Positions 2,454 to 42,525 of a stretch of 64,000 bases of DNA are shown here, in pieces. A program made the translations under genes and the position numbers. The stretch is from positions 7,629-71,628 of IMG/VR virus record IMGVR_UViG_3300047280_000041; one strand, given 5' to 3'. The number at the start of each line of letters is the position of its first letter. The first letter of the stretch is position 1. Source of the DNA: a virus. Its lineage: Duplodnaviria; Caudoviricetes. The notes under the pieces were generated by a model, which worked only from the letters and a program-made list of their open reading frames with translations, had not been told where the DNA came from and ran no database searches.

Positions 2454-2474
2454 AACCAAATCCCGGATAGACCT

Positions 2475-3119
2475 ATGACAGCAATTACCAATGCAGATCT
2501 GACCACCAAATCGGTGACTGGCACGGGCGTCTTCGACGTTCTGATGCAAGCCTCTGCGGCTCACCTCGAGTCGGAGTTCGGCAAGAATCGGATCAAGGGC
2601 ACTGAGTATGCTGAGGTCTATCTGGGTACCATGACACAGGTACTGCAGACAGCAACTCAGTTTCTCCTGAGCAAACAAAAGGCGGACCTGGAAGCGCAGC
2701 TGCTGGTAAAGCAGATTGCCCTGGTTGAGCAACAGCGATTGAATGCCGTCACTGAGAACACGGTGCTCGTGGCTCAGGAATGCAAGCTGCGCGCTGAATA
2801 TGACCTGACCATGGCGACCATTTTGAAGGTCAATCAGGAAACGGCATTGCTTTCACAGAAGGCAGCCACCGAGCGTGCACAGATCCAGAACCTGGGTGTC
2901 GACGAAGACAGCGTGCTGGGTCGTCAGAAAGCGCTTTACGTTGCACAGACTAACGGCTTCACGCGCGATGCGGAGCAGAAGGCAGCCAAGGTCATGATCG
3001 ATACTTGGAACGTGCGTCGAACCACGGACGAAGGCACGGTTGCCGATGGCACCAACATGCTGAACGACGCGGCAGTGGGGCGAGCAGTAACCAAGTTGCT
3101 GACAGGTGTCGGAGCCTGA
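2475..3119 (+). CDS. N4 gp54-like virion structural protein
   Basis: GTGVFDVLM...RIKGTEYAEVY motif; synteny. Confidence 0.8.
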   Translation: MTAITNADLTTKSVTGTGVFDVLMQASAAHLESEFGKNRIKGTEYAEVYLGTMTQVLQTATQFLLSKQKADLEAQLLVKQIALVEQQRLNAVTENTVLVAQECKLRAEYDLTMATILKVNQETALLSQKAATERAQIQNLGVDEDSVLGRQKALYVAQTNGFTRDAEQKAAKVMIDTWNVRRTTDEGTVADGTNMLNDAAVGRAVTKLLTGVGA

Positions 3120-3136
3120 TCTCCCTCAACTCAAAC

Positions 3137-3162
3137 AAGGGAGCGAAATGCTCCCTTTTTTT
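3137..3162 (+). terminator. Rho-independent terminator
   Basis: aagggagc-gaaat-gctccctt followed by a T run. Confidence 0.85.
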
Positions 3163-3183
3163 ATACAGTAGATTGGGAATGAC

Positions 3184-5421: not shown

Positions 5422-5963
5422 CCGGAATCAACTACGGCTATACGCCAGCAAACGCATCAGGAATTGGTTTGACCCCAGCTTCTGCATCCCCATACCTTCA
5501 AGATTTTGCGAACTGGAATACTCCAGCTCCATCTAACTACTCATTTGCAGCACCGGCAGGTAGTTATAGCAATGTAGGCCTACAAATGCCGGGTACCGCC
5601 AACAGCGCGAGCGGTCTGGGTATTCAAGGTGGCTTGTCCACCATGCCTACCGGCCCTGCAATGGCTACTGCTCCGGCCAACCCCAACGGCTGGAGTTGGT
5701 TGGGCACGCGTGACCAGCAAGGTGTTGCTGGCTTGGCTTTGGGCGGTGCTACTGCTTTGGGTAGCTTGTACCTGGGCATGCAACAGTACAACCTGGCCAA
5801 GGACACGTTGGCCAACAACAAAGCCCAGTTTGAGCGCAACTACGCAGCCAACAAGACGACGACCAACGCAAACCTGGAAGACCGTCAACGTGCTCGAGTG
5901 GCCTCCAATGCAGGTGCTTACCAGTCGGTGGGTGACTACATGAACCAGAACGGGGTGAAGTAA
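5418..5963 (+). CDS. N4 gp52-like ejection/internal virion protein
   Basis: Gly/Ala/Asn-rich, no Cys, C-terminal NLEDRQRARVAS motif; ATGA overlap with upstream gene. Confidence 0.75.
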   Translation: MTGINYGYTPANASGIGLTPASASPYLQDFANWNTPAPSNYSFAAPAGSYSNVGLQMPGTANSASGLGIQGGLSTMPTGPAMATAPANPNGWSWLGTRDQQGVAGLALGGATALGSLYLGMQQYNLAKDTLANNKAQFERNYAANKTTTNANLEDRQRARVASNAGAYQSVGDYMNQNGVK

Positions 5964-7498
5964 TGGCAGCAATCACATGGCGTAATGTCGATGGCCCCTC
6001 GTTGGCCGATGCAGCTCGTCCACTGGCTTATGCCCGTGACACATTTACTGGTGGCCTTGATGCCTTGGGCAATGCAATCAAGGGCTACGAAGCTGGCCAA
6101 GAGCGCATGTTCAAGAAGCAGGACGACGCTGCCACCCAGGACATCCTGGGCCAAATCTACCAGGCCGGTTCGGTTGCCGACTTCAACCGCTTGAACACTT
6201 CCGGCGCGCTGGATCAGGCTGTGGCTGCCAACGGTGCCCGCATTGACCGCGCGGCCGTGAACGCTTTGCGTGATGGCCGAGTGGGCGTGCTCCAAGGCCG
6301 TGAGAAGCAAGGCTGGGAATTCCAGGATGCCACGACCGATCGAGCCCAGTTGCCAGTGGTGCAGGAGATCTTGACCTTGGCTTCGGCTGGTCAGAAGGAT
6401 GCTGCCCTTGCCAAAATGGTTGAGAACCCGAACCTGCGCATGCCAGCACAGTTGATGGACTCCATTGTCAAAGGTGACCGTGACTTCCAGCGCTGGGGCT
6501 TCACAGTGGCTGAAGAAAAGCAGAAAGAGGTCATGCGTCCGTTGGATGTCCAAGCCAAGAAGCTTGCCAATGCGGGGCAATCGACTTCCAACTCCCTGGG
6601 TGTTTTGAACCTGGACAAAGCCAGACTTGATGCCGCAGACGCCAAGGAAGTGCGTGCACTGGAGAATGCCGTTGCTACGGCTCAGGCAGATTACACCAGC
6701 GTGCGCACGGCCATGGGCAAGGAAATGGGTGCTTTGGCCAGTCGCGTTACGACCAAGGATCCAAAGACTGGTGAAAACGTGGCTTTGCCTTTGACATCTA
6801 TTGGCCACCCTGATTTCGACTTGATGTCGAAAGACCAGATTGCCGCCTACGATGCAGCCGCCAAACAAAACAACATGCCGTTGTCGACCAACTTGATGCG
6901 TGGCGATACCCAGGCTGCCAACGATTTCCTGGCAAGTCTGGAAGGCTCGAACCAGTTCAAAGCTTCCACGCTGAAGAAGTTCAAGGACAGTATTCGTGCT
7001 GGTTTCAATACCGATGGAAACGCTGGCCGAGTGGGCAATGACGCTGCCAACATTGCTCTGACCAATGCCCGTAACAAGGTCAAGTTTGATGAGATGGATG
7101 CCAACAACTGGTATGCACCAGGCAGTGCCAATGCAACCCGCAACTGGGAAGACATCAACAGCAAACTGGATGGTATCTTTGGTGCCGACGAGAAGGAAGA
7201 CTTGCCGCATGTCCGCGAATACCTGAACGACGTTGCCCGCAACGGTATCAAGGTAAAGGACAAGAACGGCAAGGAAGTTTCTGTTGTTCCGTCCAAGAAC
7301 GATATTCTGGGTGCTGTGGGTCAGACCTATGAAGGCTGGAATTTGTTCAATACTGGCCGCAAAGACGACATCAAAAAGGCTTTGGAGAAAGCAGTTAAAG
7401 ATCAGATTGGCAACAAGAAGATCGAAGACAGCGAGGAAAGCCAAATCTTCCGCCGGCAAGAAGCAACAAAGGCTATCTTGGGCGCGAAAAAGCCGTAA
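5963..7498 (+). CDS. N4 gp51-like internal virion (ejection) protein
   Basis: 511 aa, no Cys, N-terminal ITWRNV motif, directly upstream of vRNAP. Confidence 0.7.
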   Translation: MAAITWRNVDGPSLADAARPLAYARDTFTGGLDALGNAIKGYEAGQERMFKKQDDAATQDILGQIYQAGSVADFNRLNTSGALDQAVAANGARIDRAAVNALRDGRVGVLQGREKQGWEFQDATTDRAQLPVVQEILTLASAGQKDAALAKMVENPNLRMPAQLMDSIVKGDRDFQRWGFTVAEEKQKEVMRPLDVQAKKLANAGQSTSNSLGVLNLDKARLDAADAKEVRALENAVATAQADYTSVRTAMGKEMGALASRVTTKDPKTGENVALPLTSIGHPDFDLMSKDQIAAYDAAAKQNNMPLSTNLMRGDTQAANDFLASLEGSNQFKASTLKKFKDSIRAGFNTDGNAGRVGNDAANIALTNARNKVKFDEMDANNWYAPGSANATRNWEDINSKLDGIFGADEKEDLPHVREYLNDVARNGIKVKDKNGKEVSVVPSKNDILGAVGQTYEGWNLFNTGRKDDIKKALEKAVKDQIGNKKIEDSEESQIFRRQEATKAILGAKKP

Positions 7499-30039: not shown

Positions 30040-31140
30040 ATGACAACTTGCTCAACAGACTTTTGTGGCACTGGCCTTGGAAACATCGTCAAGCCAGGGG
30101 ATCCTGACAATTTTTCGACGCTTCTGGCTGTCTCTGCCTATGGCGGAGTTGACGTTTCATGGTCGATGCCAACGACAAACCCACATGCAGTGGCCTACAC
30201 CCGGGTTTATCGTGCGGTTTTAGACGATTTCAATGCGGCCACGATTATTGCCGAGGTTGGGAATACGTTCTTTTACGATCGAATGCAGGATTCCCAGAAC
30301 CTGTATTACTACTATTGGATCTCTCACGTTTCAATCAATGGAACGATCTTTGATCCAATCGGCCCTGCTGGAGCAGTGGCATTACCCAAGATCGATGAGA
30401 CGATCGAACAACTGACCGGCTTGATTGATGCCGGTGTACTGGCTTCTTCTTTGCGAGCAAAGATCGACAGCATTGATACAAACTTTGGCTTGTTTCAAAG
30501 TGAGATCACTGAGCGCAATGAACAAGCAATCCTGTTCACTGCCATGCTTGCCGACGTACAAGGCGGCATCAATTCGGTTATGACATTGGTGAATGAAGAA
30601 ATCACCAATCGCCAGGATGGCGAATCAGCCTTTGTTGCTCAGAGCAACCTGATTGCAGCCGCCACGGCCGACAATTTTGCAGCCGTTGAAACCTCAATGC
30701 AGGCAGGATTCAATTCAATCAATGGAACCATCGAAGATATTGGTGCCCTGTACACAGCCAAGCTGACTGTAAACAACCTGGTCGGTGGTTTCGGAATCTA
30801 CAACGACGGCACTACCGTTGAAGCAGGCTTTGATGTGGATACTTTTTGGGTTGGTAGAACCCAGGACAACAAGCGCAAGCCCTTTATTGTTCAGAATAAT
30901 GTGGTGTACCTCGACAAAGCGGCTATTGCCGATGCCAGTATTACTTTGGCTCAAATCGACAAGGCCACTATTCAGAACCTCTCGGCACTGAATGCCGACA
31001 TGGGCAACATCACGGCCGGCAAGATCAAGTTTGCCCAGCCAGGAGCACCGACTAATTACATTCAGATTGACAGCGCAACACAAACACTCACGGTGTATAA
31101 CGCCGGTGTGCTGCGAGTCAAGATTGGAAACCTGGCATGA
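30040..31140 (+). CDS. Tail/host-specificity protein (FN3-like plus DUF1983-like C-terminus)
   Basis: FN3-like N-terminus, coiled coil, then YTAKLTVNNLVGGFG...PFIVQNNVVYLDKAAIADASITLAQI as in gpJ C-termini. Confidence 0.7.
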   Translation: MTTCSTDFCGTGLGNIVKPGDPDNFSTLLAVSAYGGVDVSWSMPTTNPHAVAYTRVYRAVLDDFNAATIIAEVGNTFFYDRMQDSQNLYYYYWISHVSINGTIFDPIGPAGAVALPKIDETIEQLTGLIDAGVLASSLRAKIDSIDTNFGLFQSEITERNEQAILFTAMLADVQGGINSVMTLVNEEITNRQDGESAFVAQSNLIAAATADNFAAVETSMQAGFNSINGTIEDIGALYTAKLTVNNLVGGFGIYNDGTTVEAGFDVDTFWVGRTQDNKRKPFIVQNNVVYLDKAAIADASITLAQIDKATIQNLSALNADMGNITAGKIKFAQPGAPTNYIQIDSATQTLTVYNAGVLRVKIGNLA

Positions 31141-31418
31141 CCTTTGGCCTGAATGTTTTCAACGCATTGGGTGGGCTGTCTTACTCGTCAAATGACGTGA
31201 CCTGGAACCAGGTTGACTTCTTTGAAGTGGTGGGCGATGGGTCAGCAAGTTACAGCTACCCGGTGTTGGCCGGCAAGGAAGTGTTGACCGCACAGATGTT
31301 TGTCAACTCGCCCCCGACGGATAAAAAAGCAAAGGCTCACACAGTGACGGTCAGCGGGACCACGGTGTTTGCTTCTGGTGGTTCAGAAGCGAGCTACATT
31401 TTGGTGATGATGCGATGA
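31137..31418 (+). CDS. Small tail-associated protein
   Basis: MTFGLNVFNALGGLSYSS start resembles genes following gpJ-like proteins; ATGA overlaps on both sides. Confidence 0.6.
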   Translation: MTFGLNVFNALGGLSYSSNDVTWNQVDFFEVVGDGSASYSYPVLAGKEVLTAQMFVNSPPTDKKAKAHTVTVSGTTVFASGGSEASYILVMMR

Positions 31419-32353
31419 GTCACGGTCTTTTAGTTCTCAACAACAACAATCAGGTGCTGGTGTCTTCTGACACACGCAATTTGCACTTCATTGGCAAGGC
31501 GTCTTACGCATCCATGGATGTGTCTGACGACGAATACGGTGGCATTCGAATTGCCACCTTCACGATTGCCTGCTCAACGTACCCGGTGCCTTTCCTCACG
31601 ATGCCCACGGGCGATCGGTATGCGATCTCACGAATCTACAACGTGGGCGGGAACTCTTGGAATATTGAAGTCATTCGCTCTGGCACAGGGACTTTTAACC
31701 CCGAGGTGTATGTGTTTGCCGATCCACGGTCTGCAAGCTCCTCAGAGCCCTTTGGCATGATCGTGTATCGAGACGACGGAACACCGTCGTTTGATAGCCG
31801 CTTGCGTCCTTTGGCCATTACAGGGGGCTTGTCGGTGGTGCACCCCAGCAACCCCAAGGTGTTTCCTTCTGGGGGCTTGGCCCCCAAAGATTGCAGCTCG
31901 ACTGACAGCGCTTGTGGGTCGTACTTTGCACCAACTGCAGAGAATGCCTATTCGCTGCCTGGGCAACCGGCAAAGCCTATGTTTTTCTATCCCAGTCTGG
32001 CTCAGGCTGAGCGCGAGAATATCTGGTCAACTTCGGAAGAAGATTGCCTGGGGTCGGACAAGTTGGGCGTTTGCTTGACCAAGGACTATTACCAGTGGGC
32101 TTCACGATACTGGGCGTTTTATCGTGGTGGCATTCGATTCAGCAGCTCAACGCTTTATGCCGGCTGGATTACGGTGTCCCACGGCTGCAATAGCTATTAC
32201 CGTCATGAAAGCTCGTTGCTGAGCATTGGTAACATCATTGATATTCCGGTGGGCAGTGACAGTTGGGTAGGCGGTAAATGGCCGTACAGCAATGAAACGC
32301 TCAACCTGGATGCCGCTACTGTTCTTGTTGGAGACGCCTCTCGCTATGATTAA
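31415..32353 (+). CDS. Tail tip / receptor-binding candidate
   Basis: MSHGLLVLNNNNQVLVSSD and FGMIVYRDDGTPSFDSR repeats typical of tail-tip accessory proteins; aromatic-rich C-terminus with several Cys. Confidence 0.55.
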   Translation: MSHGLLVLNNNNQVLVSSDTRNLHFIGKASYASMDVSDDEYGGIRIATFTIACSTYPVPFLTMPTGDRYAISRIYNVGGNSWNIEVIRSGTGTFNPEVYVFADPRSASSSEPFGMIVYRDDGTPSFDSRLRPLAITGGLSVVHPSNPKVFPSGGLAPKDCSSTDSACGSYFAPTAENAYSLPGQPAKPMFFYPSLAQAERENIWSTSEEDCLGSDKLGVCLTKDYYQWASRYWAFYRGGIRFSSSTLYAGWITVSHGCNSYYRHESSLLSIGNIIDIPVGSDSWVGGKWPYSNETLNLDAATVLVGDASRYD

Positions 32354-32552
32354 GCCATTCAAAATTCAATGGATCCGTGATGAATCAAACGGAGCAAAGA
32401 CAGTTGCTGTGTCGGTGCGCAAAGTGCTGCAGTTGACTGAAACGAAGAAACAAACAGAAGAGTTTCACACCACGATCTACGTGGATGCGGGACTTGATGT
32501 GGATGACACGGTGTACGACTTTTTAAATCAAGGGGGCTGGATCGATGCCTGA
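32346..32552 (+). CDS. Hypothetical protein
   Basis: 68 aa, overlapping both neighbours. Confidence 0.55.
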   Translation: MIKPFKIQWIRDESNGAKTVAVSVRKVLQLTETKKQTEEFHTTIYVDAGLDVDDTVYDFLNQGGWIDA

Positions 32553-33213
32553 TATTCTTTTCAAAGCAGACGGCCAAAAGGTCGAGAACTTCAACAAAGA
32601 CAAAGCTGAATCAACAGCCTTGTTCAATGAAATCAAGCAGGCATTTCCTTGGTTCGACGTAGGGTCACACCGCGCAGTGTCTCAAAGCTATGTGCACGAA
32701 ATAATTAACAAGCGCGTGATGAGGACTTGTTTGATGATGAACTATGCTGAATCCATTGTGGATGGTACCTTTGGTACAGCTCATCGTCTGTTTGATCTGG
32801 ACGCAGGCACATCAATGATCTATGTCACAAAGCTTTTTGAAGGTGAACAACCAAGTTGGGCAACAGAAAACATGTTTGTTCTTGGCCAGACTGAGCATCA
32901 TGAAGAATTTAGAAAGCCTTGTGATCCTGCAATGTTGTCTTTCACCGAATACTTTTTTATTGCTTCTGACGATCGCCTTGTAGAAATGCAGTTTGATCTG
33001 ACCGACCGCAATCAAGACACGTTGTTCAGTGTTCTGGTTTCAAACGACCAAGTGGTAGCACAGCGCCGATACACCAACTTTGACCCGTTGGATGCAGGTG
33101 TGCTGGCCAATTGGCAAATGATGTATGTGATGTATGCGAAGAAAGCTCGGCGCATGGATCTTGTACGAAAGATGTTTTCCCTGCCCTACATCGGTCAGCT
33201 GACAGACGCATAA
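32545..33213 (+). CDS. Hypothetical protein
   Basis: 222-aa ORF coupled to the tail genes; no motif recognised. Confidence 0.6.
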   Translation: MPDILFKADGQKVENFNKDKAESTALFNEIKQAFPWFDVGSHRAVSQSYVHEIINKRVMRTCLMMNYAESIVDGTFGTAHRLFDLDAGTSMIYVTKLFEGEQPSWATENMFVLGQTEHHEEFRKPCDPAMLSFTEYFFIASDDRLVEMQFDLTDRNQDTLFSVLVSNDQVVAQRRYTNFDPLDAGVLANWQMMYVMYAKKARRMDLVRKMFSLPYIGQLTDA

Positions 33214-33321
33214 TCTTTCTATGGTCTAATATGGACCATTAAACGGATGACTGAATAGCAGGAACTTCCGACCAAAATTTCCTTGGCACTGAGAGTGTCA
33301 AGATTGTCGGAGAACCTGCGA

Positions 33322-33657
33322 ATGACTACTCGAATCAAACTTGTCCGAGGTGATACCAAGCCACAGCTTCGCCTCACGCTGACTAACGAAACAAGCGGTC
33401 AGCCCATCAATTTGACCGGTGCTACGGTCACTCTGCACTTCCGCGCAGCAGATGCCAACACAATCCTTTTTTCTCGCCCAGCTCTTGTCAACCCCCAATA
33501 CGCAACCGAAGGCATTTGCTACATCAACTGGGAAGAGGGCGACTTAGATCAAGAGATGGGCAACTACGAGGGCGAAATTGAAATCGTCCTGTCAGATGGT
33601 TCCCGCGAAACCCTTTACGAAATCCTGAAGTTCAAGCTTCGTGAGGACTTCGCATGA
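33322..33657 (+). CDS. BppU-like baseplate/tail adaptor domain protein
   Basis: IKLVRGDT...PINLTGATV...YEGEIEI pattern; start at ATG 33322. Confidence 0.75.
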   Translation: MTTRIKLVRGDTKPQLRLTLTNETSGQPINLTGATVTLHFRAADANTILFSRPALVNPQYATEGICYINWEEGDLDQEMGNYEGEIEIVLSDGSRETLYEILKFKLREDFA

Positions 33658-34703
33658 GCTTGCCTATCGTAGCCAACGCCATCAGAGCCGCTTGTGCGCG
33701 GATGGGCACGGCTGCGCAAGTCTCGGTCTCTCCAGTACGTCTGGCAATCGAAATAGGTGAGTTCCTGCTGAACGTGCGCAAGCGCGATTCAGTGACTGCG
33801 TCCGATGGCACGGGTGTTTTGAGCGAGATGTTCTTGACATTCTTCAAGTCCAAGATTGATGTGGCCAGCGTTGCTGAAGATGTCGCTTTCGAGTTCTACA
33901 AAGCCCTGCACGACGAAGCTGGGTTAAGTGATGCCCGCATTTTTGCGTTCTTCAAGACCCTGATTGATGAAATGCGTGTTCAAGATGCTCACGCATTGAA
34001 TCTGTCCAAGCCAATGGCAGAGCTGGTGGCCGGAGTAGAAGACAAGACGTATCTGCTCAGCAAGAAAGTCAAGGAAGATGCTGTAGGCGCTCAAGATGCG
34101 TTGGACTACTTCGATGTAGCCAAGGCATTGACTGACGGCATAGGCCTGGTAGAAGCCCGCGCATTTGGGCTTTTTCGCCCAATAGCTGAAAAGTTTGAAG
34201 TTGCTGATGCGGAGTTTCAAACCGTCACCAAAAACTTTCAAGACACCTTGCATGTCACAGATGACATGGACGGAGCCGCTTCAATTCTTGATGATCAAGC
34301 CATGCAGTTCACCAAACAGATGGCTGAAGTTGCCGGTGTAACTGACGAGATTTACATCATCATTGAAGTGCTCCGCGAATGGTTTGAAACGGCAACCGTT
34401 GGCGAAGTTTTCGCGCTATTACTGTCTCGCGGCCTGTTTGATTCTGCTGCAGTTTCAGATTACTGCAACCAAATTTTGAACAAGACTGTATTTGATACAG
34501 TCGGTACTCAAGATTCAACCACTAAGTCTGCGGCCAAATCGTTAGCAGACAGTGGGTTATTCACTGATGGCAAGGCAATTGCAATGTCAAGAGTGAAAAA
34601 CGAATCGACCCTAATTTCCGATACGGGGTCGTTACGCAATCAGAGCTATTCTGGCTCTGACTACTTTGCGGAAGACTACGTCGGAGTCTCCAGATCTTTT
34701 TAA
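33654..34703 (+). CDS. Repetitive tail-associated structural protein
   Basis: About 18-20-aa imperfect repeats (K.l.D...v.D) throughout; C-terminal DYFAEDYVG. Confidence 0.6.
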   Translation: MSLPIVANAIRAACARMGTAAQVSVSPVRLAIEIGEFLLNVRKRDSVTASDGTGVLSEMFLTFFKSKIDVASVAEDVAFEFYKALHDEAGLSDARIFAFFKTLIDEMRVQDAHALNLSKPMAELVAGVEDKTYLLSKKVKEDAVGAQDALDYFDVAKALTDGIGLVEARAFGLFRPIAEKFEVADAEFQTVTKNFQDTLHVTDDMDGAASILDDQAMQFTKQMAEVAGVTDEIYIIIEVLREWFETATVGEVFALLLSRGLFDSAAVSDYCNQILNKTVFDTVGTQDSTTKSAAKSLADSGLFTDGKAIAMSRVKNESTLISDTGSLRNQSYSGSDYFAEDYVGVSRSF

Positions 34704-34713
34704 AGGAAAAACC

Positions 34714-35172
34714 ATGATCAATGAAAAACTCAAACTGAGCGGCCAAGTCAATATCGTCGTCACCGACAAAAACGGTAACGTCAAAGACTCTCGTGAAATC
34801 AAGAACCTGGTAGTCAATACCGGTCTCGCATACATCATCTCCCGCATGGTGGGCACCAGCAAATCCGTTATGAGCCACATGGCTCTTGGTGCTGGTACCA
34901 CTGCAGCAGATGCCAGTCAGAGCGATCTGATCAGCATGTTGGGTAGCCGTGAAGCCATTGATTCCACAACCATCATTGGCAGCAACAACGAAAAAGTGCA
35001 GTTTGTTTCGACGTTTGAACCCGGCGATGCAACTGGTGCTGTGACTGAAGCCGGCATCTTCAACGCATCTACTGCTGGCGACATGTTGTGCCGCACGGTG
35101 TTTCCGGTGGTGAACAAAGCTGCTGACGACCAAATGGCCGTCACCTGGACTATCACGCTGGCTGCAGCTTAA
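34714..35172 (+). CDS. Tail collar / fibre attachment protein
   Basis: NLVVNTGLAYI...HMALGAG...GAVTEAGIFNA...MLCR motif typical of tail-fibre N-terminal anchor proteins. Confidence 0.7.
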   Translation: MINEKLKLSGQVNIVVTDKNGNVKDSREIKNLVVNTGLAYIISRMVGTSKSVMSHMALGAGTTAADASQSDLISMLGSREAIDSTTIIGSNNEKVQFVSTFEPGDATGAVTEAGIFNASTAGDMLCRTVFPVVNKAADDQMAVTWTITLAAA

Positions 35173-35185
35173 TAGAGGCGTCTAG

Positions 35186-36583
35186 ATGGAAGCGATCACT
35201 CTTCGCGCCGACCTTACCCGTGGTCTAACCAACGCGGAGATCGACGCCAACTGGAATGCAATCGTAGGTGAACTGAACACCAAGGTAACTGCTGCAGGTG
35301 CAAGAGCAGCTATCTCGGTGTCTGGTTCATTGACGTATAACTCTACAACAGGTGTTCTTGGCTTTACCGAGACACCATTGACAAGCGGGAACATTGTTTC
35401 GGCTTTGGGCTTTACGCCCTACAACAACAGCAACCCCTCTGGTTTCATTACCAGTGCGGCATTGACCAGTTATTTGCCGTTAGCTGGTGGCACATTAAGC
35501 GGTGCATTGACTGTTGGTGGAAACATTATTGCAGCTGCAAACGCTGGATCAAGCAGGATTATCGGCTTGTCAAGCGGAACCAATACAACGCTTGTCTTGC
35601 AAGCGGGTGCGGTAACAGGTTCCGGCGCAAACATTGAGCTGACAGCAGACAAGTATGCGTATGTGGATGCAGATGAAACTCGCTTACGCAGCAACGATGC
35701 GTCAGTTACTTTTCTGACTGCTAACTCGACTGGTTTAAACGTTGTCACGGGTGCTCTGAAGCAAGGCGGCAACCAAGTCCTGCATGCAGGCAACTTTGGC
35801 ACCTACGCAGCAGCGTTGTCACACACGCACAGCTATGCACCGCTGACTGGCGGTGGCACATCTGGCAGTTGGCCAATCAGTGTTACCGGTACAGCAGGCG
35901 GTGTGGCATGGTCTGCAGTGTCGGGCCGTCCTACCGGTGAACCTTGGTTTGGTACGGTGTCAAACTGCGGCGGCGTTTCTGGTGGTGGTTATTACGGAAC
36001 CGGCATCACTGGTGGTATGTACCTGTACGACGAAGGCGGAAACGTCAGAATTGGCGGCACGATTACATTGACTGCTTGCGCTTGCAACTGCAACTGCTCT
36101 ACATGCTGCTTCCCGCTTGACACGGAAGTCGCGATGGGCGATGGCTCAACAAAGGCGGTTCAAGATGTTGTCGTTGGCGATACGGTTTTGTCCCCATTCG
36201 GCGCAGACGTTGAGGTGCTGTCCCAAATTGTTTGCCCGGTTCAAGAGGGCGAAATCACCTACCTTGTAAATGGCACAACCCGAATGACACGAGAGCATTT
36301 GCTGCGCGGCGAATCCGGTTGGCTTGCTGTTGACTTGCAGGGCTACATCGGCTGGCGCGAAAAGCAAATGAGCGAAGGCTTGGATGCTGGAATTGACCCG
36401 GCCCAACTCAAGCAAGCCGAGGTCGGCGACTTGATTCTCACACTTAATGGTCTGGTCAAAATTGAATCCATTGAGCGCATCACCGGCAAAGCACCGGAGA
36501 CATTGATGTCTCTTGAGTTGACAGGCAGCCGCAGCTTCTTTGCTAACGGCATGGCTGTTGAATCAAAAACCAATCAGGGGTAA
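35186..36583 (+). CDS. Tail fibre with Cys-rich C-terminal motif fused to a Hint (intein-like) domain
   Basis: Fibre motifs (ALGFTPYN, YLPLAGGTLSG, VLHAGNF, HTH), then CACNCNCSTC, then CFPLDTEVAMGDG...VVVGDTV...TREH...FFANGMAVES. Confidence 0.85.
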   Translation: MEAITLRADLTRGLTNAEIDANWNAIVGELNTKVTAAGARAAISVSGSLTYNSTTGVLGFTETPLTSGNIVSALGFTPYNNSNPSGFITSAALTSYLPLAGGTLSGALTVGGNIIAAANAGSSRIIGLSSGTNTTLVLQAGAVTGSGANIELTADKYAYVDADETRLRSNDASVTFLTANSTGLNVVTGALKQGGNQVLHAGNFGTYAAALSHTHSYAPLTGGGTSGSWPISVTGTAGGVAWSAVSGRPTGEPWFGTVSNCGGVSGGGYYGTGITGGMYLYDEGGNVRIGGTITLTACACNCNCSTCCFPLDTEVAMGDGSTKAVQDVVVGDTVLSPFGADVEVLSQIVCPVQEGEITYLVNGTTRMTREHLLRGESGWLAVDLQGYIGWREKQMSEGLDAGIDPAQLKQAEVGDLILTLNGLVKIESIERITGKAPETLMSLELTGSRSFFANGMAVESKTNQG

Positions 36584-36586
36584 TAA

Positions 36587-37468
36587 ATGAACCAGCACCT
36601 ATTTCATTGGACGCTAGGCCAAAGCATACCTTTGCACATTAGCCTAGAAGTCGTTGGCGACACTGTGATGGTTGCGTACTTTAGGGATGCAACCAATGAG
36701 CCAACAGAAAGCGACGTTATCCTTGGCTCTGATGAATACACAGAGCTAAAAAGCAACGCAGCAAATCACCCCGTGATTCAAGTTCCTGAGTCTCTTTTTA
36801 TCGCCAGCACAATCAACCAAGATTGGGGCGACAAGAGGATTGGCCTTATTGGTTTTTCACAAATCAAAAAAGACTCAAACTTTATGGGTTCTCGTGAGTA
36901 CGCCGCTCCTGCAATCTACTGCTTTCAAGTCGATGCCAGAACCCCTGTTGCTCCATACAACTTGCTGGTTGACACAATAGATTCAAAGCGCAGCTCAGTG
37001 CATTCCAAGAGCCCGTTTTTGCGTGATACCGCAATTGTTGCGTTCTTGCACCGCAAAGATGTGCCGCTCTCGTCTGCGTCATTTGTTGTCCGACAACCAG
37101 AAGGCTCGCTGTTTGCATCAAACATTACGGGATGGGCTGAGACAACAACATCGCCAGCTGCTATCGTGCAGGCAACCATTCCAAAAGTTGTCTTTACTCA
37201 GTCCACAGTTTCAATTGCCTCAAACGAAACAGCGTCTGTTGGCTTTTCTGTGAAGTTTGATGATGGCTCCGTTGATTCTGGCGGAGAGCATGAGGCAGTG
37301 TTTGAATCTACTGGCGGCTACTTGCCAGTTCGACGCGTTGCCACAAACACTGGCACTGGCTCCATCCGCATCTCTGCGCTGGGCATGTTGAGCGGCGAGA
37401 GCTTCAAAGTAAAAGCTGGCTTTAAAAACTACTCTGGCACGGATGAGATTCTTGTAGAAGTGCTATGA
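36587..37468 (+). CDS. Fibre-associated protein with probable C-terminal beta-sandwich domain
   Basis: 293 aa, starts 3 nt after the fibre stop; beta-rich C-terminus ESTGGYLPVRRV...KVKAGFKNYSG. Confidence 0.65.
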   Translation: MNQHLFHWTLGQSIPLHISLEVVGDTVMVAYFRDATNEPTESDVILGSDEYTELKSNAANHPVIQVPESLFIASTINQDWGDKRIGLIGFSQIKKDSNFMGSREYAAPAIYCFQVDARTPVAPYNLLVDTIDSKRSSVHSKSPFLRDTAIVAFLHRKDVPLSSASFVVRQPEGSLFASNITGWAETTTSPAAIVQATIPKVVFTQSTVSIASNETASVGFSVKFDDGSVDSGGEHEAVFESTGGYLPVRRVATNTGTGSIRISALGMLSGESFKVKAGFKNYSGTDEILVEVL

Positions 37469-38094
37469 CAAAAACAGAAATTATCTTTGGCACACCGATT
37501 CTGGTGATAGACCTACCAAAGAATCCAGAAGCACTTTCTCGGATTGCTGCGGCATCGAAGGAATATCACTTCAAAAGGGCCAGGGATGATGCTGAGTTTG
37601 CAGCAAAAAACGGTCGAACCAGGATTTCTAGGCCCGATCTTTTAGAAAGTTTGCCTTCGTCAGATAGGGCATTTCTATTAGAGCCACTGAATGAAGCTGT
37701 TCGCTATTTCGTTGGTCATGGTTTGAAAGACTCGGCTACATACGAAAGAAAGCTGGCTGTGCGTGGGTTTGCCCGGTATTACCCGGATGGCGGAAGGATT
37801 GTTCCCCACACGCATTTTGATGCTGACATCGTTGTTTCAATTTATCTACAATCTGGGGGCACGGAAAATGCGCCGGCTGCAGACTTGATCCTGATAGATC
37901 AAACTGTTCGTGGCTATCCGCATCGTGCGCCGTTCCATAGAATCCCAGTGCGGGACGGAATGGCGGTAATTTTTCCAAGCTATGTGCTACATGAGACGGA
38001 CCCAAGCCCTGGTGAGAGAATCATTGCAGGGCTCGAGTACAAGATCATTGAGCACGATATGCACAAGATCTTCACCCCAACTGAGAAATACTGA
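37465..38094 (+). CDS. Putative 2OG-Fe(II) oxygenase
   Basis: IFGTPI N-terminus, PHTH...VVSIYL, G.AVIFPSYVLHET...ERI double-stranded beta-helix pattern. Confidence 0.8.
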   Translation: MTKTEIIFGTPILVIDLPKNPEALSRIAAASKEYHFKRARDDAEFAAKNGRTRISRPDLLESLPSSDRAFLLEPLNEAVRYFVGHGLKDSATYERKLAVRGFARYYPDGGRIVPHTHFDADIVVSIYLQSGGTENAPAADLILIDQTVRGYPHRAPFHRIPVRDGMAVIFPSYVLHETDPSPGERIIAGLEYKIIEHDMHKIFTPTEKY

Positions 38095-39437
38095 TGTTCG
38101 AGATTACTGCACTCAACCCGGCAACCAACGAAACAAAGCGGTTTTTCTACGACGCGCACAAGTCGACGTTAACGCATCAAGATGGTTCTGATGTGATGGC
38201 AGTAAAGCCGATGGGCTTTCATGCAATAGAAACAACCAGCGCAGTGACACCGACTGGAAAAACAAGCCCGCGCTTGTTGAAGATTTCGCTTGGCTTGTCG
38301 TGCAACTACGAGTGCGAATATTGCTCTCAGCGTTTTGTGCCAAGAGCAGAAGAAACCAATCACAACGACATCGACAATTTCATCGGTGGTTTGGACGCTT
38401 GGGTGAAAACACCCCCTGAAAAGATTGAGTTCTGGGGTGGTGAGCCTCTCGTCTACATCAAGACAATGCGCCCATTGGCTGAGGCAATCAGGCTGAAATA
38501 CCCGCAATCCGTTTTGTCCTTCATCACCAATGGCTCATTGCTGACTGAAGAATTGAATGAGTGGGTGGAAAGTATGGGATTTGCAGTGGGCATCAGTCAC
38601 GATGGCCCTGGCCAAAGCGTTCGTGGCCCAGATCCTTTGGACGACCCGATTCGCAAAGCTGCGATTCTTGACCTATATCGCAGACTTGCACCGCAAGGGC
38701 GCATTAGCTTCAATGCGATGATGAACAGATCAAACAAAAGTAGGGTCGCTGTTAGAAATTTTTTCGTCCAGCTGACTGGTGACGAGAATGTAAAAATTGG
38801 CGAAGGCAGCCTGATTGACGCTTACGATGAAGGTGGTTTATCGAGCTCGCTGAGCGGTAGTGAGCACGTCGAATTTAGAAGGAACTCCCTTTATGAAATT
38901 CGTACTTCACTGGGATTGAATGTCGAGATCACCAGAACTAAAGTAGAAAACTTCTTTCAATCCATCATCACTAAAAGACCATCGACATCGCTTGGGCAAA
39001 AGTGTGGCATGGATAGAAGCGATTCCATTGCAGTTGATTTAAACGGCAACGTCATGACTTGCCAGAACGTGAGCTCAAACAGTACAGCGCCGAATGGTAA
39101 TAGCCACCTGATTGGAAATGTGCAAGATTTGGGCGCTGTGAAACTGAACACCTCAACACATTGGTCTCACAGAGATGAGTGTTCTAAATGCCCAGTGCTG
39201 CAGCTGTGCGCTGGCGCGTGCATGTTTCTGGAAGGGAATTTGTGGGATGTCACTTGCGATAGTGCGTTCTCTGACAACATTGTTTTCTTTGCAGCCGCAT
39301 TCGAATTGATGACCGGGCACATTCCAATCTACATCAATGGCCCTCAGCGACAAGATCGCAGAGACGTGTTCGGACATATCTTTGGTGTCCCTAAACAAAC
39401 CAAGAGACCATTCCCAATTCCAGTCGTGGCTGGGTAA
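38094..39437 (+). CDS. Radical SAM enzyme with SPASM domain
   Basis: CNYECEYC (CxxxCxxC), FWGGEP, ISHDG; SPASM cysteines KCG...TCQ and CSKCPVLQLCAGAC...C. Confidence 0.95.
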   Translation: MFEITALNPATNETKRFFYDAHKSTLTHQDGSDVMAVKPMGFHAIETTSAVTPTGKTSPRLLKISLGLSCNYECEYCSQRFVPRAEETNHNDIDNFIGGLDAWVKTPPEKIEFWGGEPLVYIKTMRPLAEAIRLKYPQSVLSFITNGSLLTEELNEWVESMGFAVGISHDGPGQSVRGPDPLDDPIRKAAILDLYRRLAPQGRISFNAMMNRSNKSRVAVRNFFVQLTGDENVKIGEGSLIDAYDEGGLSSSLSGSEHVEFRRNSLYEIRTSLGLNVEITRTKVENFFQSIITKRPSTSLGQKCGMDRSDSIAVDLNGNVMTCQNVSSNSTAPNGNSHLIGNVQDLGAVKLNTSTHWSHRDECSKCPVLQLCAGACMFLEGNLWDVTCDSAFSDNIVFFAAAFELMTGHIPIYINGPQRQDRRDVFGHIFGVPKQTKRPFPIPVVAG

Positions 39438-39460
39438 ACAGACCTTTCAGAAAGCTTCAG

Positions 39461-39772
39461 ATGTTCACTGACGATCAAGGAACCAAACGAGAAACACCCG
39501 AAGAACTCACTATCGAGAGCAAACTCGATTTGATCCTTGATGAGATGCGCCACCTGCGGTCTGCGTTTCCCAAAGACGAGGATGGCAACGTCGACTATGA
39601 CGGCCACCGCAAATACCACGAGCACTTGATCCGCGCAGCTGAAGCGCAAGAAGCGTTCTGGAATGACCTTAAGAAAGAGGTCATCAAGAAAGGCATCATC
39701 GGTGCTCTGATTATCGGCCTTGGTTTGGTGTGGCTGGGTTTTCAAGCCAAGCTAGGTATCGGCCCGCATTGA
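39461..39772 (+). CDS. Holin-like membrane protein
   Basis: Single C-terminal hydrophobic helix; first gene of the lysis block. Confidence 0.5.
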   Translation: MFTDDQGTKRETPEELTIESKLDLILDEMRHLRSAFPKDEDGNVDYDGHRKYHEHLIRAAEAQEAFWNDLKKEVIKKGIIGALIIGLGLVWLGFQAKLGIGPH

Positions 39773-39773
39773 C

Positions 39774-40541
39774 GTGGACCCCATCAGCCTTCTCATGGCA
39801 GCACAAGCAGCAGTGGCTGCTGTGCGCAAAGGCTGCCAGATGCTCAGCGAAGGCAAAGCTGAGATCAGCAAGCTAAAGAAGACGGTTGAACAAGGCATCG
39901 GTGATGCCAAGGCAATCTACAAAGAAGTCACTGGCCTATGGTCGTGGCTTCTTGGTTTATTCAGCGGTGCTCCTAAAAAGCCAACGGTAGAGATCCAGAC
40001 TCCCGTCGCTGACACCCCAAAGCCTGCAGTAGCTCCAGTAGCTCAAGCCAAGAAGACCAAGCAGAAAGAGCCTGAGCTCAGCTACGAGGAATACCAAACC
40101 CAGGCAATACACCAAGTCTGCGAGCAGCTCAAGACCTTCTTTGAGATTCGTCGGAATCTAAGGTCCTACTGTCTGGAGCTTGAAGAAATCTCCAAAACAA
40201 CGACGACAATTGAAGACAGTGCTCTGGACAGAGTCGAGATTGAACTGCAACTGGAAAACATGACAGTTCAGATCCGTGAAGCAATGGTGTATGCACCCGC
40301 AGAACTGCGAAACATCTACAGCCGCTTCCTTGAGATGTACAACCTGATCATTGAGGAGCAAGAGTTTGCTCGTCAGGTCAAACGCAAGAAAGACAGGGAT
40401 GCAAAGTGGCAACGAGAACTCCTACGCAATCATCGTATAGACCGGGCAGCGGTGGGAACAGCAGTGGTGGTGGGAATACTGTGGATGTGGGCCTTTCTAC
40501 TGTCACTCGGATGGCTCGTGAGGACACACGCTGGTTTGTAA
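39774..40541 (+). CDS. Coiled-coil protein with C-terminal TM helix (lysis region)
   Basis: GTG start, MDPISLL N-terminus, C-terminal hydrophobic helix. Confidence 0.6.
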   Translation: MDPISLLMAAQAAVAAVRKGCQMLSEGKAEISKLKKTVEQGIGDAKAIYKEVTGLWSWLLGLFSGAPKKPTVEIQTPVADTPKPAVAPVAQAKKTKQKEPELSYEEYQTQAIHQVCEQLKTFFEIRRNLRSYCLELEEISKTTTTIEDSALDRVEIELQLENMTVQIREAMVYAPAELRNIYSRFLEMYNLIIEEQEFARQVKRKKDRDAKWQRELLRNHRIDRAAVGTAVVVGILWMWAFLLSLGWLVRTHAGL

Positions 40542-40750
40542 TCGGTGTGGTGGTGCTTTCACTGGTTCTGTTTTTGGTTCTTCCTATTGGCGTGCTGATC
40601 GCCGTCGATAATGAGAAACGGCTCGGTAGAGCTGAAGCCCGTATTGATCGCAAGATCAGACGATTGGAAAAACTTGAGGAGAGTCTTAAGGAAAAAGATG
40701 AAAAAGCTGTTGTACCTCGGCCTGCTGCTGGTACTGATAACGGGCTGTGA
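40511..40750 (+). CDS. Small membrane protein (TM plus coiled coil)
   Basis: WFVIGVVVLSLVLFLVLPIGVLIAV followed by a charged helix; start uncertain. Confidence 0.5.
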   Translation: MAREDTRWFVIGVVVLSLVLFLVLPIGVLIAVDNEKRLGRAEARIDRKIRRLEKLEESLKEKDEKAVVPRPAAGTDNGL

Positions 40751-40922
40751 AGACCGTTACCGGTATTACTGTCAGGATCCCAAAAACTTTGCGCAGAAGC
40801 GCTGTCAGAAACCCGATTGCTTATTTACCCAGGATTGCCCTGAGTACCTAGTAGCACCAATCCTGGAGAAGAAAATTGAACAATCTACATCAACCGCGTC
40901 GAGCCCTGTTCCAAACAACTGA
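40698..40922 (+). CDS. Small Cys-rich lipoprotein
   Basis: MKK signal, lipobox ITGC, then YRYYCQDP...C..P.C...QDC. Confidence 0.7.
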   Translation: MKKLLYLGLLLVLITGCEDRYRYYCQDPKNFAQKRCQKPDCLFTQDCPEYLVAPILEKKIEQSTSTASSPVPNN

Positions 40923-41451
40923 AGAACTGATCGCCTTCTGTGAAGTCATGGTGTGGGCCTTTGTGGTCGGCATTGTGATGCTGGTGTTTGGTGGCTTGGT
41001 TTTCGCCATGCTGTATTCCGTGACGTTCGTTCAGCAGCCACTTAAAACGATGGCTCCGATCGACATGGCCTACACCAAGATGCTCAATGACATCGTACTG
41101 CTGATGACAGGATCGATTACGACCCTGATCGGTATGCGCGTGGCAAAGAAGGCATCCGAGATGATGGCCAACAAAGTGAGCTCAACGCTTACCCCGACAC
41201 CGCCTACCTCACCGAGTTCAGGGCCTGCGTGTACACCCGCCCCTGTTCAGCCGGTAGGGCCATCGACTGCTCCTCCTGCACCTGCAGCATCGACTTCAAT
41301 CATGCCTGACTGGAACTGGATGAATTGGACGAACCCCCAGCTCGATGAGAACTGGACTCCGCCCCCTCCTCCTACGACGCCTGCAGATCATCTGGAGCCA
41401 GAAGATGAACGTGAATCCCTGGCCCACGCTCGAGCAGAGCAGCGAGTCTGA
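40876..41451 (+). CDS. Two-TM membrane protein with Pro-rich tail
   Basis: Two hydrophobic helices, then a P/T/S-rich region. Confidence 0.6.
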   Translation: MNNLHQPRRALFQTTEELIAFCEVMVWAFVVGIVMLVFGGLVFAMLYSVTFVQQPLKTMAPIDMAYTKMLNDIVLLMTGSITTLIGMRVAKKASEMMANKVSSTLTPTPPTSPSSGPACTPAPVQPVGPSTAPPAPAASTSIMPDWNWMNWTNPQLDENWTPPPPPTTPADHLEPEDERESLAHARAEQRV

Positions 41452-41453
41452 AC

Positions 41454-41921
41454 ATGCTGGCCTTACTCAGGAACCCCTGGATCATTCTCGGCGCGCTGTC
41501 TGCCGTCTTAACTGCATATTTCTACGGCCACCATGCCGGTTTTGTGCAGAGAGACTTGGAGATGCAAGCCGAGATCAGCCAGAAGAACAATGAGTCCCGC
41601 GAGCGTGAACAGAAGCTCAGCGAGCAACTCAATCAAACATCAACTCAATTGAAAGACGCCAATGATTCAATCAATCAAAAGCAAACTGCTCTTGATCGCG
41701 CTATCAGTGCTGGGCGGGTGCGCCTCCCCGCCGCCCGTTGCGTACAAGCCAGTTCAAGTGCCCCCGCTCCCAGCGGGAATCAGCAAGATGGAGCCGAATC
41801 TGACCGAGAGACTCTCCGACTTATTGCTCAAATCGCAGCCGACGGGGACAGAGCCATCGTTCAACTCAACGCCTGCGTCGAAGCCTACAACTCAGTCAGG
41901 AGCCAAGTAAATGGTCAATGA
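41454..41921 (+). CDS. Rz-like inner-membrane spanin
   Basis: N-terminal TM, long coiled coil, AGRVRL motif and C-terminal QLNAC. Confidence 0.8.
   Translation: MLALLRNPWIILGALSAVLTAYFYGHHAGFVQRDLEMQAEISQKNNESREREQKLSEQLNQTSTQLKDANDSINQKQTALDRAISAGRVRLPAARCVQASSSAPAPSGNQQDGAESDRETLRLIAQIAADGDRAIVQLNACVEAYNSVRSQVNGQ
41662..41910 (+). CDS. Rz1-like outer-membrane spanin lipoprotein (embedded in Rz, +1 frame)
   Basis: Signal peptide with lipobox LGGC, Pro-rich mature part, fully nested in the Rz gene. Confidence 0.75.
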   Translation: MIQSIKSKLLLIALSVLGGCASPPPVAYKPVQVPPLPAGISKMEPNLTERLSDLLLKSQPTGTEPSFNSTPASKPTTQSGAK

Positions 41922-42525
41922 ATCCCAACTACAACGGCTGCACATCAACCCGGCGTTGTGCTCGGCCCTGAATGAGACGTTCGAGATGTTCAACATTCGG
42001 ACGGCCCGTCAGCAAGCAGCTTTCTTGGCTCAGTGCGGTCATGAATCTGGCAACTTCACAAAGCTGGAAGAAGACCTGCGCTACCGTGGTGCCACGCTCT
42101 TCAAGATGTTCCCTAAGACGCCAAAGCGTGCCTGGGGTTTTGCATCAGTAGAAGAAGCGATGACCTACCAAGGTCACCCCGAGCGCATTGCCTCCCGCAT
42201 CTACGGCGGCCGAATGGGCAACCGCGATGAGAAGTCAGGCGATGGCTGGCTGTACCGGGGATCCGGCAACATGCAATTGACCGGAGCGGCGAATTTCTTC
42301 CATGCCGGCAAGGCCCTGGGCCAAGACTTTGTCCGCAACCCGGATCTTGTCCGCACACCTGAGTGGGGCCTGAAGACTGCTGGCTGGTTCTGGTCGACTC
42401 ACCGCTGCAACGAGCTGGCCGAGAAGGCTGACTGGACTGGCTTGACCAAGGCCATCAACGGGGGCTTGATCGGCTACGACGATCGAGTGGCCCACACTGG
42501 ACTAGCACTAAACGTGCTGGCTTGA
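41911..42525 (+). CDS. Endolysin, glycoside hydrolase family 19
   Basis: AAFLAQCGHESGNF, GDGWLYRGSGNMQLTG, AGWFW and TKAINGG. Confidence 0.92.
   Translation: MVNESQLQRLHINPALCSALNETFEMFNIRTARQQAAFLAQCGHESGNFTKLEEDLRYRGATLFKMFPKTPKRAWGFASVEEAMTYQGHPERIASRIYGGRMGNRDEKSGDGWLYRGSGNMQLTGAANFFHAGKALGQDFVRNPDLVRTPEWGLKTAGWFWSTHRCNELAEKADWTGLTKAINGGLIGYDDRVAHTGLALNVLA

Follow-up and report, generated by a model that had tools for sequence, protein, structure and literature searches.

Radical S-adenosylmethionine (SAM) enzymes that modify peptides offer the nearest described points of comparison for the locus considered here. NxxcB joins a Cys through a beta-thioether to an Asn three residues earlier, also accepts Ala, Gln or Asp as the partner, and takes neither Ser nor Thr in place of the Cys (PMC9389541); PapB links Cys to carbons next to carboxylates, the C-terminal carboxylate included (PMC12373016); and 8vpo is an RS-SPASM cyclopropyl synthase (PMC10878394). 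In phages, “radical SAM cassettes” have been mentioned in the host-recognition cluster of pelagimyophages and left uninterpreted (PMC7029224). The present analysis concerns a stretch of 64,000 nucleotides (the window) that makes up most of a 71,628-bp IMG/VR virus record (IMGVR_UViG_3300047280_000041; completeness rating about 98%) and, within it, four closely spaced genes that encode a tail fibre ending in a run of alternating cysteines (the ladder) joined to a Hint domain, an accessory protein, a 2-oxoglutarate (2OG)-Fe(II) oxygenase, and a radical SAM enzyme with a SPASM domain.

Maturation of phage fibres is usually ascribed to folding, chaperones, and self-cleavage alone. The best overall explanation of the locus, to which we give a probability of roughly 60%, is that it is a fibre-tip maturation cassette: radical SAM maturation of the type seen in peptides that ribosomes make and that are modified after translation (RiPPs), applied to a virion fibre that carries a self-cleaving Hint cap, a reading supported at the genomic level. 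The form particular to this window is the Hint-fused one, in an N4-like phage. A preliminary description of this DNA knew of no characterized system of the kind, and we likewise found no description of a ladder and radical SAM fibre system in the literature on phage radical SAM enzymes, tail fibres, and phage RiPPs, including the papers on Achromobacter phage JWF and Ralstonia phage RSP15, and no published account of a fibre that ends in a Hint domain.

Linkage of the ladder to the radical SAM enzyme

A ladder is defined here as a run of the form (C-x)n, with x mostly Asn, Asp or Ala, that lies at the extreme C-terminus of a protein or directly before a Hint domain. Linkage of this radical SAM clade to Cys-rich fibre ends was a check set beforehand, and it passed from the enzyme side, the ladder side, and the Hint side. 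Starting from the enzyme, 13 of 16 phage loci have an adjacent protein that bears a ladder at its C-terminus or directly before a Hint domain; the remaining three are a locus without upstream DNA, one with NCQC only, and one with an internal ladder. A survey of one genome per prokaryote species yielded 266 relatives of the enzyme, mostly in Burkholderiales such as Limnohabitans, Polaromonas, and Burkholderia paludis MSh1. We examined the 56 best loci whose upstream DNA extended to 3 kb or more, and 54 of them had a terminal ladder on the same strand within 5 kb.

For the test from the ladder side, viral sequences were searched with a DNA pattern for CNCACDC, which matched at 66 loci (about seven would be expected by chance, by our own estimate). 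The radical SAM gene lay within 2.7 kb for 33 of the 36 ladders that were in frame and either terminal or directly before a Hint domain, the three exceptions being cut by contig ends, and beside none of the 30 out-of-frame or internal matches. From the Hint side, a profile of seven domains was searched against 1.84 billion representatives and the best 150 matches were examined; among these, 20 proteins have a single C-terminal Hint domain, with a ladder directly upstream of it in 13. In all four of the ladder-Hint loci that were then looked up, the accessory gene (E 1e-45 to 1e-56) and a radical SAM gene of the same family (E 1e-85 to 1e-193) come after the fibre, and the loci sit between tail genes and lysis genes. 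Coincidence is excluded, because a terminal CxCxC arises by chance at a rate of only about 1e-5 per protein. The linkage between the enzyme and a terminal ladder is near-obligate, and these two are the only near-obligate parts of the cassette, the oxygenase and the accessory protein being optional.

The cassette occurs in three tail types: this N4-like phage, JWF (81.5 kb, a siphovirus by its lambda-like tail genes), and RSP15 (filed under Ackermannviridae). Cultured phages with the enzyme are RSP15 and Achromobacter phages JWF and 2-1. In JWF, the ladder of gp028 (NCNCDCNCNCS) is followed directly by Cys1 of a Hint domain, and then come a 240-aa protein and the radical SAM enzyme; in RSP15, gp048 ends in NCQCGN, has no Hint domain, and is followed by a homologue of the accessory protein, a 277-aa protein, and the radical SAM enzyme. 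The closest relative of the window's cassette, in a Burkholderiaceae metagenome-assembled genome (L083), has the same four-gene order and a different fibre body, and in another locus (L167) the cassette stands behind a lambda-type central fibre, from which we conclude that the module moves between fibres and tail types.

A linkage for every phage radical SAM enzyme was ruled out by the Ralstonia jumbo phages RP12 and RP31, in which a distant enzyme (26% identity) belongs to a cassette of three radical SAM genes that has no Cys ladder, so that the link holds for this clade and not for all phage enzymes of the type. In the RP12 locus (L164; NC_041911.1 81980-95029, at 448-825 and 2063-7173), this cassette adjoins virion structural genes; the 125-aa protein upstream lacks a Cys ladder, has a His/Tyr-rich end (...HTHYSPDGSY), and may belong to another pair of enzyme and substrate.

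Components of the cassette

The fibre reads CACNCNCSTC at residues 298-307 and C-F-P-L-D-T-E-V, the N-terminal block of a Hint domain, from residue 308 directly onward, which is the junction that the preliminary description had noticed. The CxCxC pattern is rare in the window: among 396 open reading frames (ORFs) of at least 50 aa, it is found, besides the fibre, in two short spurious ORFs only. Across 74 unique tails, some of which were collected with the CNCACDC pattern itself, the residues between the cysteines are Asn (54%), Asp (20%), Ala (16%), and rarely Gln. By position (70 unique tails), Asn precedes the first Cys in 93% and accounts for 93% and 89% of the first two in-between residues; the early positions are nearly all Asn, the later ones shift to Asp, and variation is greatest at the last (29% “other”). 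Per tail, the longest run comprises 3-11 cysteines and is followed by 0-8 residues in almost all carriers without a Hint domain, Cys1 following directly in those that have one.

The carriers themselves range from a small class of 113-156 aa to collagen-repeat tail fibres of 646-726 aa; those of L014 and L016 are clear fibres (phrog_819/5073 at E 1e-46 to 1e-66). One contig (L006 5014-6093, shared with L069) encodes three tandem paralogues (113-119 aa) that all terminate in TNCNCACDCL and lie immediately before the accessory and radical SAM genes, a layout like that of multi-copy RiPP precursors. Ladders away from the C-terminus were also encountered. Giant proteins of 2081 aa (L025 3914-10159, L040, and L052) contain CNCACNCACDC internally, about 590 residues before the C-terminus, with no radical SAM gene in the available flanking DNA. 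In L012 (7021-8034), two runs lie at residues 120-160 of a 337-aa ORF downstream of the radical SAM gene; this locus either departs from the terminal rule or reflects a gene call affected by a frameshift or a fusion.

The radical SAM/SPASM enzyme is recognized by PF04055 (31.7 bits; cut-off 29.5), by the SPASM model TIGR04085 (36 bits; cut-off 27), and by phrog_1802 (E 4e-60). Among 29 homologues from other loci, the CxxxCxxC cysteines (C70, C74, and C77) and the seven-Cys SPASM motif (C304, G318-x4-C323, C363-x2-C366-x5-C372-x3-C376, and C388) are invariant. A large family is involved, with 2,882 clusters matched at E 1e-20 or better, and the phage enzyme has about 60 residues ahead of the core, with no N-terminal RiPP recognition element evident. 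A profile of the family against the PDB matched, in order, 8vpo (3e-21), anSME (2e-13), CteB (5e-12), ChlB, and YydG (4e-8), small-molecule enzymes such as viperin and BtrN ranking below the peptide and protein modifiers; the concern raised in the preliminary description, that the enzyme might act on nucleotides or cofactors, is answered to the extent that peptides or proteins are the substrates of all the solved enzymes nearest to it. The only solved relative aligned over both core and SPASM domain is anSME. A counterpart of its Cys261 is absent from the profile alignment, so one auxiliary cluster may have an open site, by analogy with what has been proposed for Cys-binding thioether synthases. 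The PapB model NF047865 was the second-best NCBIfam match (E 1.3e-14), aligning over residues 67-173 only. A co-fold of the enzyme, the accessory protein, and fibre residues 245-307, run without controls, scored 0.00, a value that speaks neither for nor against the pairing. Two loci (L014 5984-7000 and L016 5848-6855) contain an additional radical SAM gene whose product is shorter (335-338 aa) and shares about 27% identity with the core; it immediately precedes the main one and lies behind collagen-repeat fibres with ladders of 7-9 cysteines.

Taken alone, the window's Hint sequence gives weak matches (PF05203 at E 9e-5, 23-25 bits against a cut-off of 32.1; PF01079 at 20 against 29.7). Six of seven members of the Hint set match PF05203, however, the relatives reaching E 7e-13, and a profile of the seven domains finds, in the PDB, the N-terminal part of the PI-SceI intein (E 1.4e-11), the bacterial intein-like (BIL) domain 2lwy (8e-5), and, over the full length, the Hint domain of an ADP-ribosyltransferase toxin (6y75/6tmm, 1e-4). 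Invariant in the alignment are Cys1, T6, D12-G13, and the block-B His (H64; H371 in the fibre of the window) of T/SxxH, the block itself occurring as TREH, SEEH, TGDH, SGDH, or TGGH. The N-terminal-cleavage type of Hint domain (Hedgehog- or BIL-like) is characterized by Cys1 and T-x-x-H or S-x-x-H, both present here; a splicing intein would have a conserved C-terminal Asn, usually as His-Asn, and after it a Cys, Ser, or Thr as the nucleophile of a C-extein, and the seven members have neither. The domain stops five residues past its last block and its ends vary among the members. With Cys1 and T/SxxH kept and no splicing end, the domain should cut itself off instead of splicing, and we consider it probable, from these residues, that it does so and thereby exposes the ladder as the fibre end.

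The preliminary description had made no use of the Hint domain, which is the part that would make the ladder a true C-terminus: it would remove itself to yield the same end that relatives without Hint have, because in those the ladder is C-terminal as encoded. The position of the ladder, either terminal or followed directly by Cys1, fits what would be expected if the Hint domain exists to expose it. In a tree of 112 radical SAM proteins, Hint-bearing loci appear at no fewer than five separate places (at least five), so that the domain is a recurrent add-on and not a single-lineage oddity. It may serve to help the fibre fold or trimerize, to give the enzyme a recognition handle, or to supply a reactive thioester. 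Because the accessory gene begins in frame, one codon past the stop of the fibre-Hint gene (window 36581-36589), we considered whether read-through could make its product a C-extein; this was rejected, as the frames differ in JWF and L083, and the arrangement looks accidental.

The oxygenase scores 24.7 with PF13759, just under the cut-off of 27, and its family profile matches 3bvc (1e-14) and 2rg4 (4e-14) in the PDB. Its AlphaFold2 model (pLDDT 88) is closest by Foldseek to the same two uncharacterized structures and then to PHD2 and a bacterial prolyl 4-hydroxylase (TM 0.5-0.63). The His-x-Asp...His triad and downstream Arg of 2OG-Fe(II) oxygenases can be read in the sequence as H115-F-D117, H176, and an Arg about 10 residues after H176, and the model has the matching double-stranded beta-helix fold; across 26 homologues, H115 is invariant and H176 is kept in at least 90%. 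An oxygenase gene of this family was seen at 24 of 49 phage loci and at 57 of 80 genome loci, some of which have two or three copies of it.

The accessory protein had no match in Pfam, PHROG, or NCBIfam. Its AlphaFold2 model (pLDDT 76, above 90 for residues 200-293) contains at residues 198-293 a domain that resembles the Ig-like domains of glycoside hydrolase family 2 enzymes and intimin (Z 10-11.5, root-mean-square deviation 2.3-2.6 over about 90 residues), and for the N-terminal domain an ESM Atlas feature search, Foldseek, and VIA-align gave no fold match. A homologue stands beside the radical SAM gene in 53 of 80 genome loci, as it does in the four ladder-Hint loci found through the Hint profile. 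In three loci, a protein of 236-240 aa occupies the place between the ladder-Hint fibre and the radical SAM gene (L002 7141-7863, L003 7096-7818, and L005 6262-6972); in JWF, phage 2-1, and L005, this protein has no detectable similarity to the Ig-like accessory.

A proposed maturation of the fibre tip and its rivals

That the ladder is the substrate of the radical SAM enzyme seems to us highly likely, and the sequence of events could be as follows. The fibre would be made with its C-terminal alternating-Cys run followed by the Hint domain, which would perform the first intein step only, an N-to-S acyl shift at Cys1 that leads to its own removal, so that on release the ladder is left as the actual end of the fibre. 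The radical SAM enzyme would act on the ladder inside the infected cell, either ahead of the Hint cut or following it, its likeliest reaction being abstraction of a hydrogen from an in-between residue (Asn, Asp, or Ala) and joining of the resulting carbon to a Cys sulfur held on an auxiliary Fe-S cluster. The outcome would be thioether cross-links, proof against reduction, that are stacked at the distal fibre tip in the NxxC register known from NxxcB. The 2OG oxygenase would then add hydroxyls, probably on Asn or Asp, and the Ig-like 293-aa protein would serve as adaptor or chaperone; we put forward the hydroxylation tentatively, and regard the part given to the accessory protein as possible and somewhat doubtful.

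As to the product, a thioether is our first choice with slightly less than even odds, because the acceptor set of NxxcB matches the ladder; PapB may bear on its terminal position. The prevalence of Asn before the first Cys (93%) and the variability of the last in-between position fit an acceptor that lies three residues N-terminal to its Cys. More speculatively, the thioethers might tie the three chains of the tip to one another covalently while the Hint thioester, left at the last residue of the ladder, is not simply hydrolysed but captured by a neighbouring thiol, an amine, or a small molecule, giving a closed new receptor-binding tip; cholesterol captured by the Hedgehog thioester is a parallel for the latter step, and we hold this elaboration to be quite unlikely.

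Several observations weigh against a fibre-tip maturation cassette as just set out. The ladder of the window (A-C-A-C-N-C-N-C-S-T-C) is atypical: it is short, has Ala and not Asn before its first Cys, is interrupted by an S-T pair, and contains a single strict N-x-x-C pair (N301-C304). For the small carriers (113-156 aa), no matching phage family was found, and their place in the virion is only putative; in a PHROG search, six small ladder proteins and one carrier of 679 aa found no match. The models of named maturases score far under their cut-offs (PapB 54.2 against 340, geopeptide 54 against 400, and anSME 45.3 against 349.45), and a third to a half of the loci lack the accessory protein and the oxygenase. 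Small intrachain rings between adjacent residues would be geometrically awkward, so the links may be interchain or of another kind, and for every member of the family the thioether and hydroxylation chemistry is proposed from sequence and analogy.

A first rival is that the enzyme does modify the ladder, only by other means than thioethers: formylglycine formation as by anSME, epimerization of alternate residues as by YydG/PoyD, a C-C bond, a persulfide, or some other cross-link. It draws on the full-length alignment with anSME, the match to YydG, the C-C bonds made by the best match 8vpo, and the strict alternation of the ladder, which is the pattern that an alternate-residue epimerase would leave. 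Yet the anSME motif and an equivalent of anSME Cys261 are both absent, the Cys is invariant in the substrate, and its Asn, Asp, Ala, and Gln partners are the acceptor set of a known thioether synthase; we consider this rival unlikely. Alternation bears on a further explanation too, since in a beta-strand it would put all cysteines on one face: the ladder, found at the distal end of trimeric fibres, might be a metal or Fe-S needle on the three-fold axis, with the enzyme loading the metal or cluster or performing an unrelated step. Such a needle would do with Cys what T4 gp37 does with its His-x-His iron sites. Against it, metal binding needs no dedicated enzyme, and wherever the DNA reached far enough no terminal ladder was without the radical SAM gene; nor would metal binding alone account for the restriction to Asn, Asp, and Ala or for the N-to-C gradient. 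We know of no radical SAM/SPASM enzyme that loads metals onto a client, and judge the needle improbable.

Two other explanations would separate the enzyme from the function of the fibre. If the modified C-terminal peptide were the real product (a RiPP, or a peptide-derived cofactor cut from its carrier, as with pyrroloquinoline quinone and mycofactocin), the fibre-like part would be a scaffold; carriers of 113-156 aa and the three tandem copies in L006 are in the manner of RiPP precursors, and the layout of enzyme and partner recalls MftC/MftB. Many carriers are nevertheless complete tail fibres (300-726 aa) that match fibre families strongly, the loci examined share no conserved gene for a protease or an exporter, and the predicted Hint cut falls after the ladder, which would therefore stay on the fibre, so that a free peptide is very improbable. 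The radical SAM gene might instead merely travel with fibre genes, without functional meaning, as fibre regions are hot spots of gene shuffling. That is scarcely credible given a link that spans unrelated fibre bodies, three tail types, and both viral and bacterial collections, and that is specific to terminal ladders (33/36 against 0/30; 54/56).

The fibre-tip maturation cassette is thus the reading that we retain, and these phages very probably do modify host-binding fibre tips chemically. If a radical SAM enzyme does act there, natural-product chemistry enters virion assembly, through an enzyme family found in all three tail types of phage and also in prophages of Burkholderiales from fresh water and soil. 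Host recognition and fibre stability would gain a further layer, one relevant to phage engineering and host-range prediction; RiPP chemistry would gain a large and so far untouched family of enzymes whose repeat substrate is very simple; and a Hint domain would for the first time be seen to cap a structural protein and then remove itself. The cultured members (JWF, 2-1, and RSP15) make the idea directly testable.

Locus setting and comparison with known systems

We assign the genome to the N4-like phages because it has genes for a virion RNA polymerase of 3433 aa (phrog_2206, E 0) and for a primase, a DNA polymerase, and a ribonucleotide reductase. From 30040 to 42525, every gene is on the + strand, in the order fibre genes, four-gene cassette, small membrane proteins, and endolysin (Table 1). 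The cassette therefore lies between tail-fibre and lysis genes, in agreement with its placement in the tail module by the preliminary description; the coordinates and spacings of the four coupled genes given there (a gap of 3 nt followed by overlaps of 4 nt and 1 nt) agree exactly with the ORF list, and the calls of Hint domain, 2OG-Fe(II) oxygenase, and CxxxCxxC/SPASM enzyme are backed by family profiles. A scan of 29.5-43 kb found fewer promoter-like sites than in shuffled sequence and terminator-like sites at chance level. The gp80-like small fibre protein upstream (window 34666-35172) recurs two genes upstream of the ladder-Hint fibre in L005 and L015 and may be a partner of this type of fibre.

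Table 1. Features of the cassette and its flanks, in window positions.
Feature	Position	Strand	Extent	Evidence
Fibre protein	30040-31140	+		phrog_496
gp80-like small fibre protein	34666-35172	+		PF23140 E 7.5e-5; phrog_5417 E 5e-27
Fibre-Hint ORF	35186-36583	+	465 aa	
Tail-fibre body, predicted mature fibre after Hint self-cleavage	35186..36106	+	residues 1-307	phrog_26292 “tail fiber protein” E 6e-9
Cys ladder CACNCNCSTC, proposed radical SAM substrate	36077..36106	+	residues 298-307	sequence; homologous ladders in radical SAM loci
C-terminal Hint domain, N-terminal-cleavage type	36107..36583	+	residues 308-465 + stop	family profile vs PDB
Accessory ORF: N-terminal domain + C-terminal bacterial Ig-like domain	36587-37468	+	293 aa	AlphaFold2 model; homologues beside radical SAM gene
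2OG-Fe(II) oxygenase ORF, PF13759/TIGR02466-like, optional	37465-38094	+	209 aa	PF13759 E 3e-5; phrog_81 E 3e-11
Radical SAM/SPASM enzyme ORF, proposed ladder maturase	38094-39437	+	447 aa	PF04055, TIGR04085, phrog_1802
Endolysin	41911-42525	+		lysis genes

Among the solved relatives, CteB (5wgg, 5why), which acts on SCIFF peptides, shares the SPASM architecture and a Cys-rich substrate with the phage system, but only the radical SAM core aligns and the SCIFF pattern differs. The auxiliary cluster of CteB has an open site that holds the substrate Cys. The preliminary description had chosen CteB/SCIFF as its analogue; it is not the best one, since spacing and acceptor residues fit NxxcB better. 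Like the proposed phage enzyme, anSME (4k36-4k39) acts on Cys and on a full-size protein instead of a leader peptide, but it yields formylglycine, which serves in catalysis and links no residues. The recognition motif of anSME is C/S-x-P/A-x-R, which occurs in none of the 74 unique ladder tails, and the score with the anSME model TIGR03942 is far under its cut-off.

PapB acting on PapA (freyrasin), a ranthipeptide system, makes many thioethers in a repeat-rich Cys peptide and works next to carboxylates, the C-terminal one included, which would suit a terminal ladder in which Asp becomes common near the end. The substrate PapA is small, however, and the phage ladder sits on a virion protein; the score with the PapB model is under the equivalog cut-off, and the ladders contain no C-x3-D/E motif, an offset of four being impossible in an alternating ladder because the offsets between Cys and non-Cys residues are always odd. 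The likeness to NxxcB and its substrate NxxcA is closer, in the radical SAM/SPASM type of the enzyme, the obligatory Cys donor, and an acceptor set equal to the in-between residues of the ladder, which forms a chain of overlapping N-x-x-C motifs with Asn, Ala, Gln, or Asp as acceptors. NxxcA is a short, leader-bearing streptococcal RaS-RiPP under quorum control, whereas the phage substrate is the C-terminus of a structural protein, with overlapping motifs and no evident leader. The likeness is one of substrate pattern.

For the cap, the conserved Cys1 and T/SxxH are shared with Hedgehog and BIL Hint domains, and the phage domain has no splicing end. A self-removing C-terminal domain on phage fibres is an established theme, as in endosialidase and T5 fibres; the Peptidase S74 chaperone domains of those proteins are the functional parallel to the cap described here, which has the Hint fold and not that of S74.

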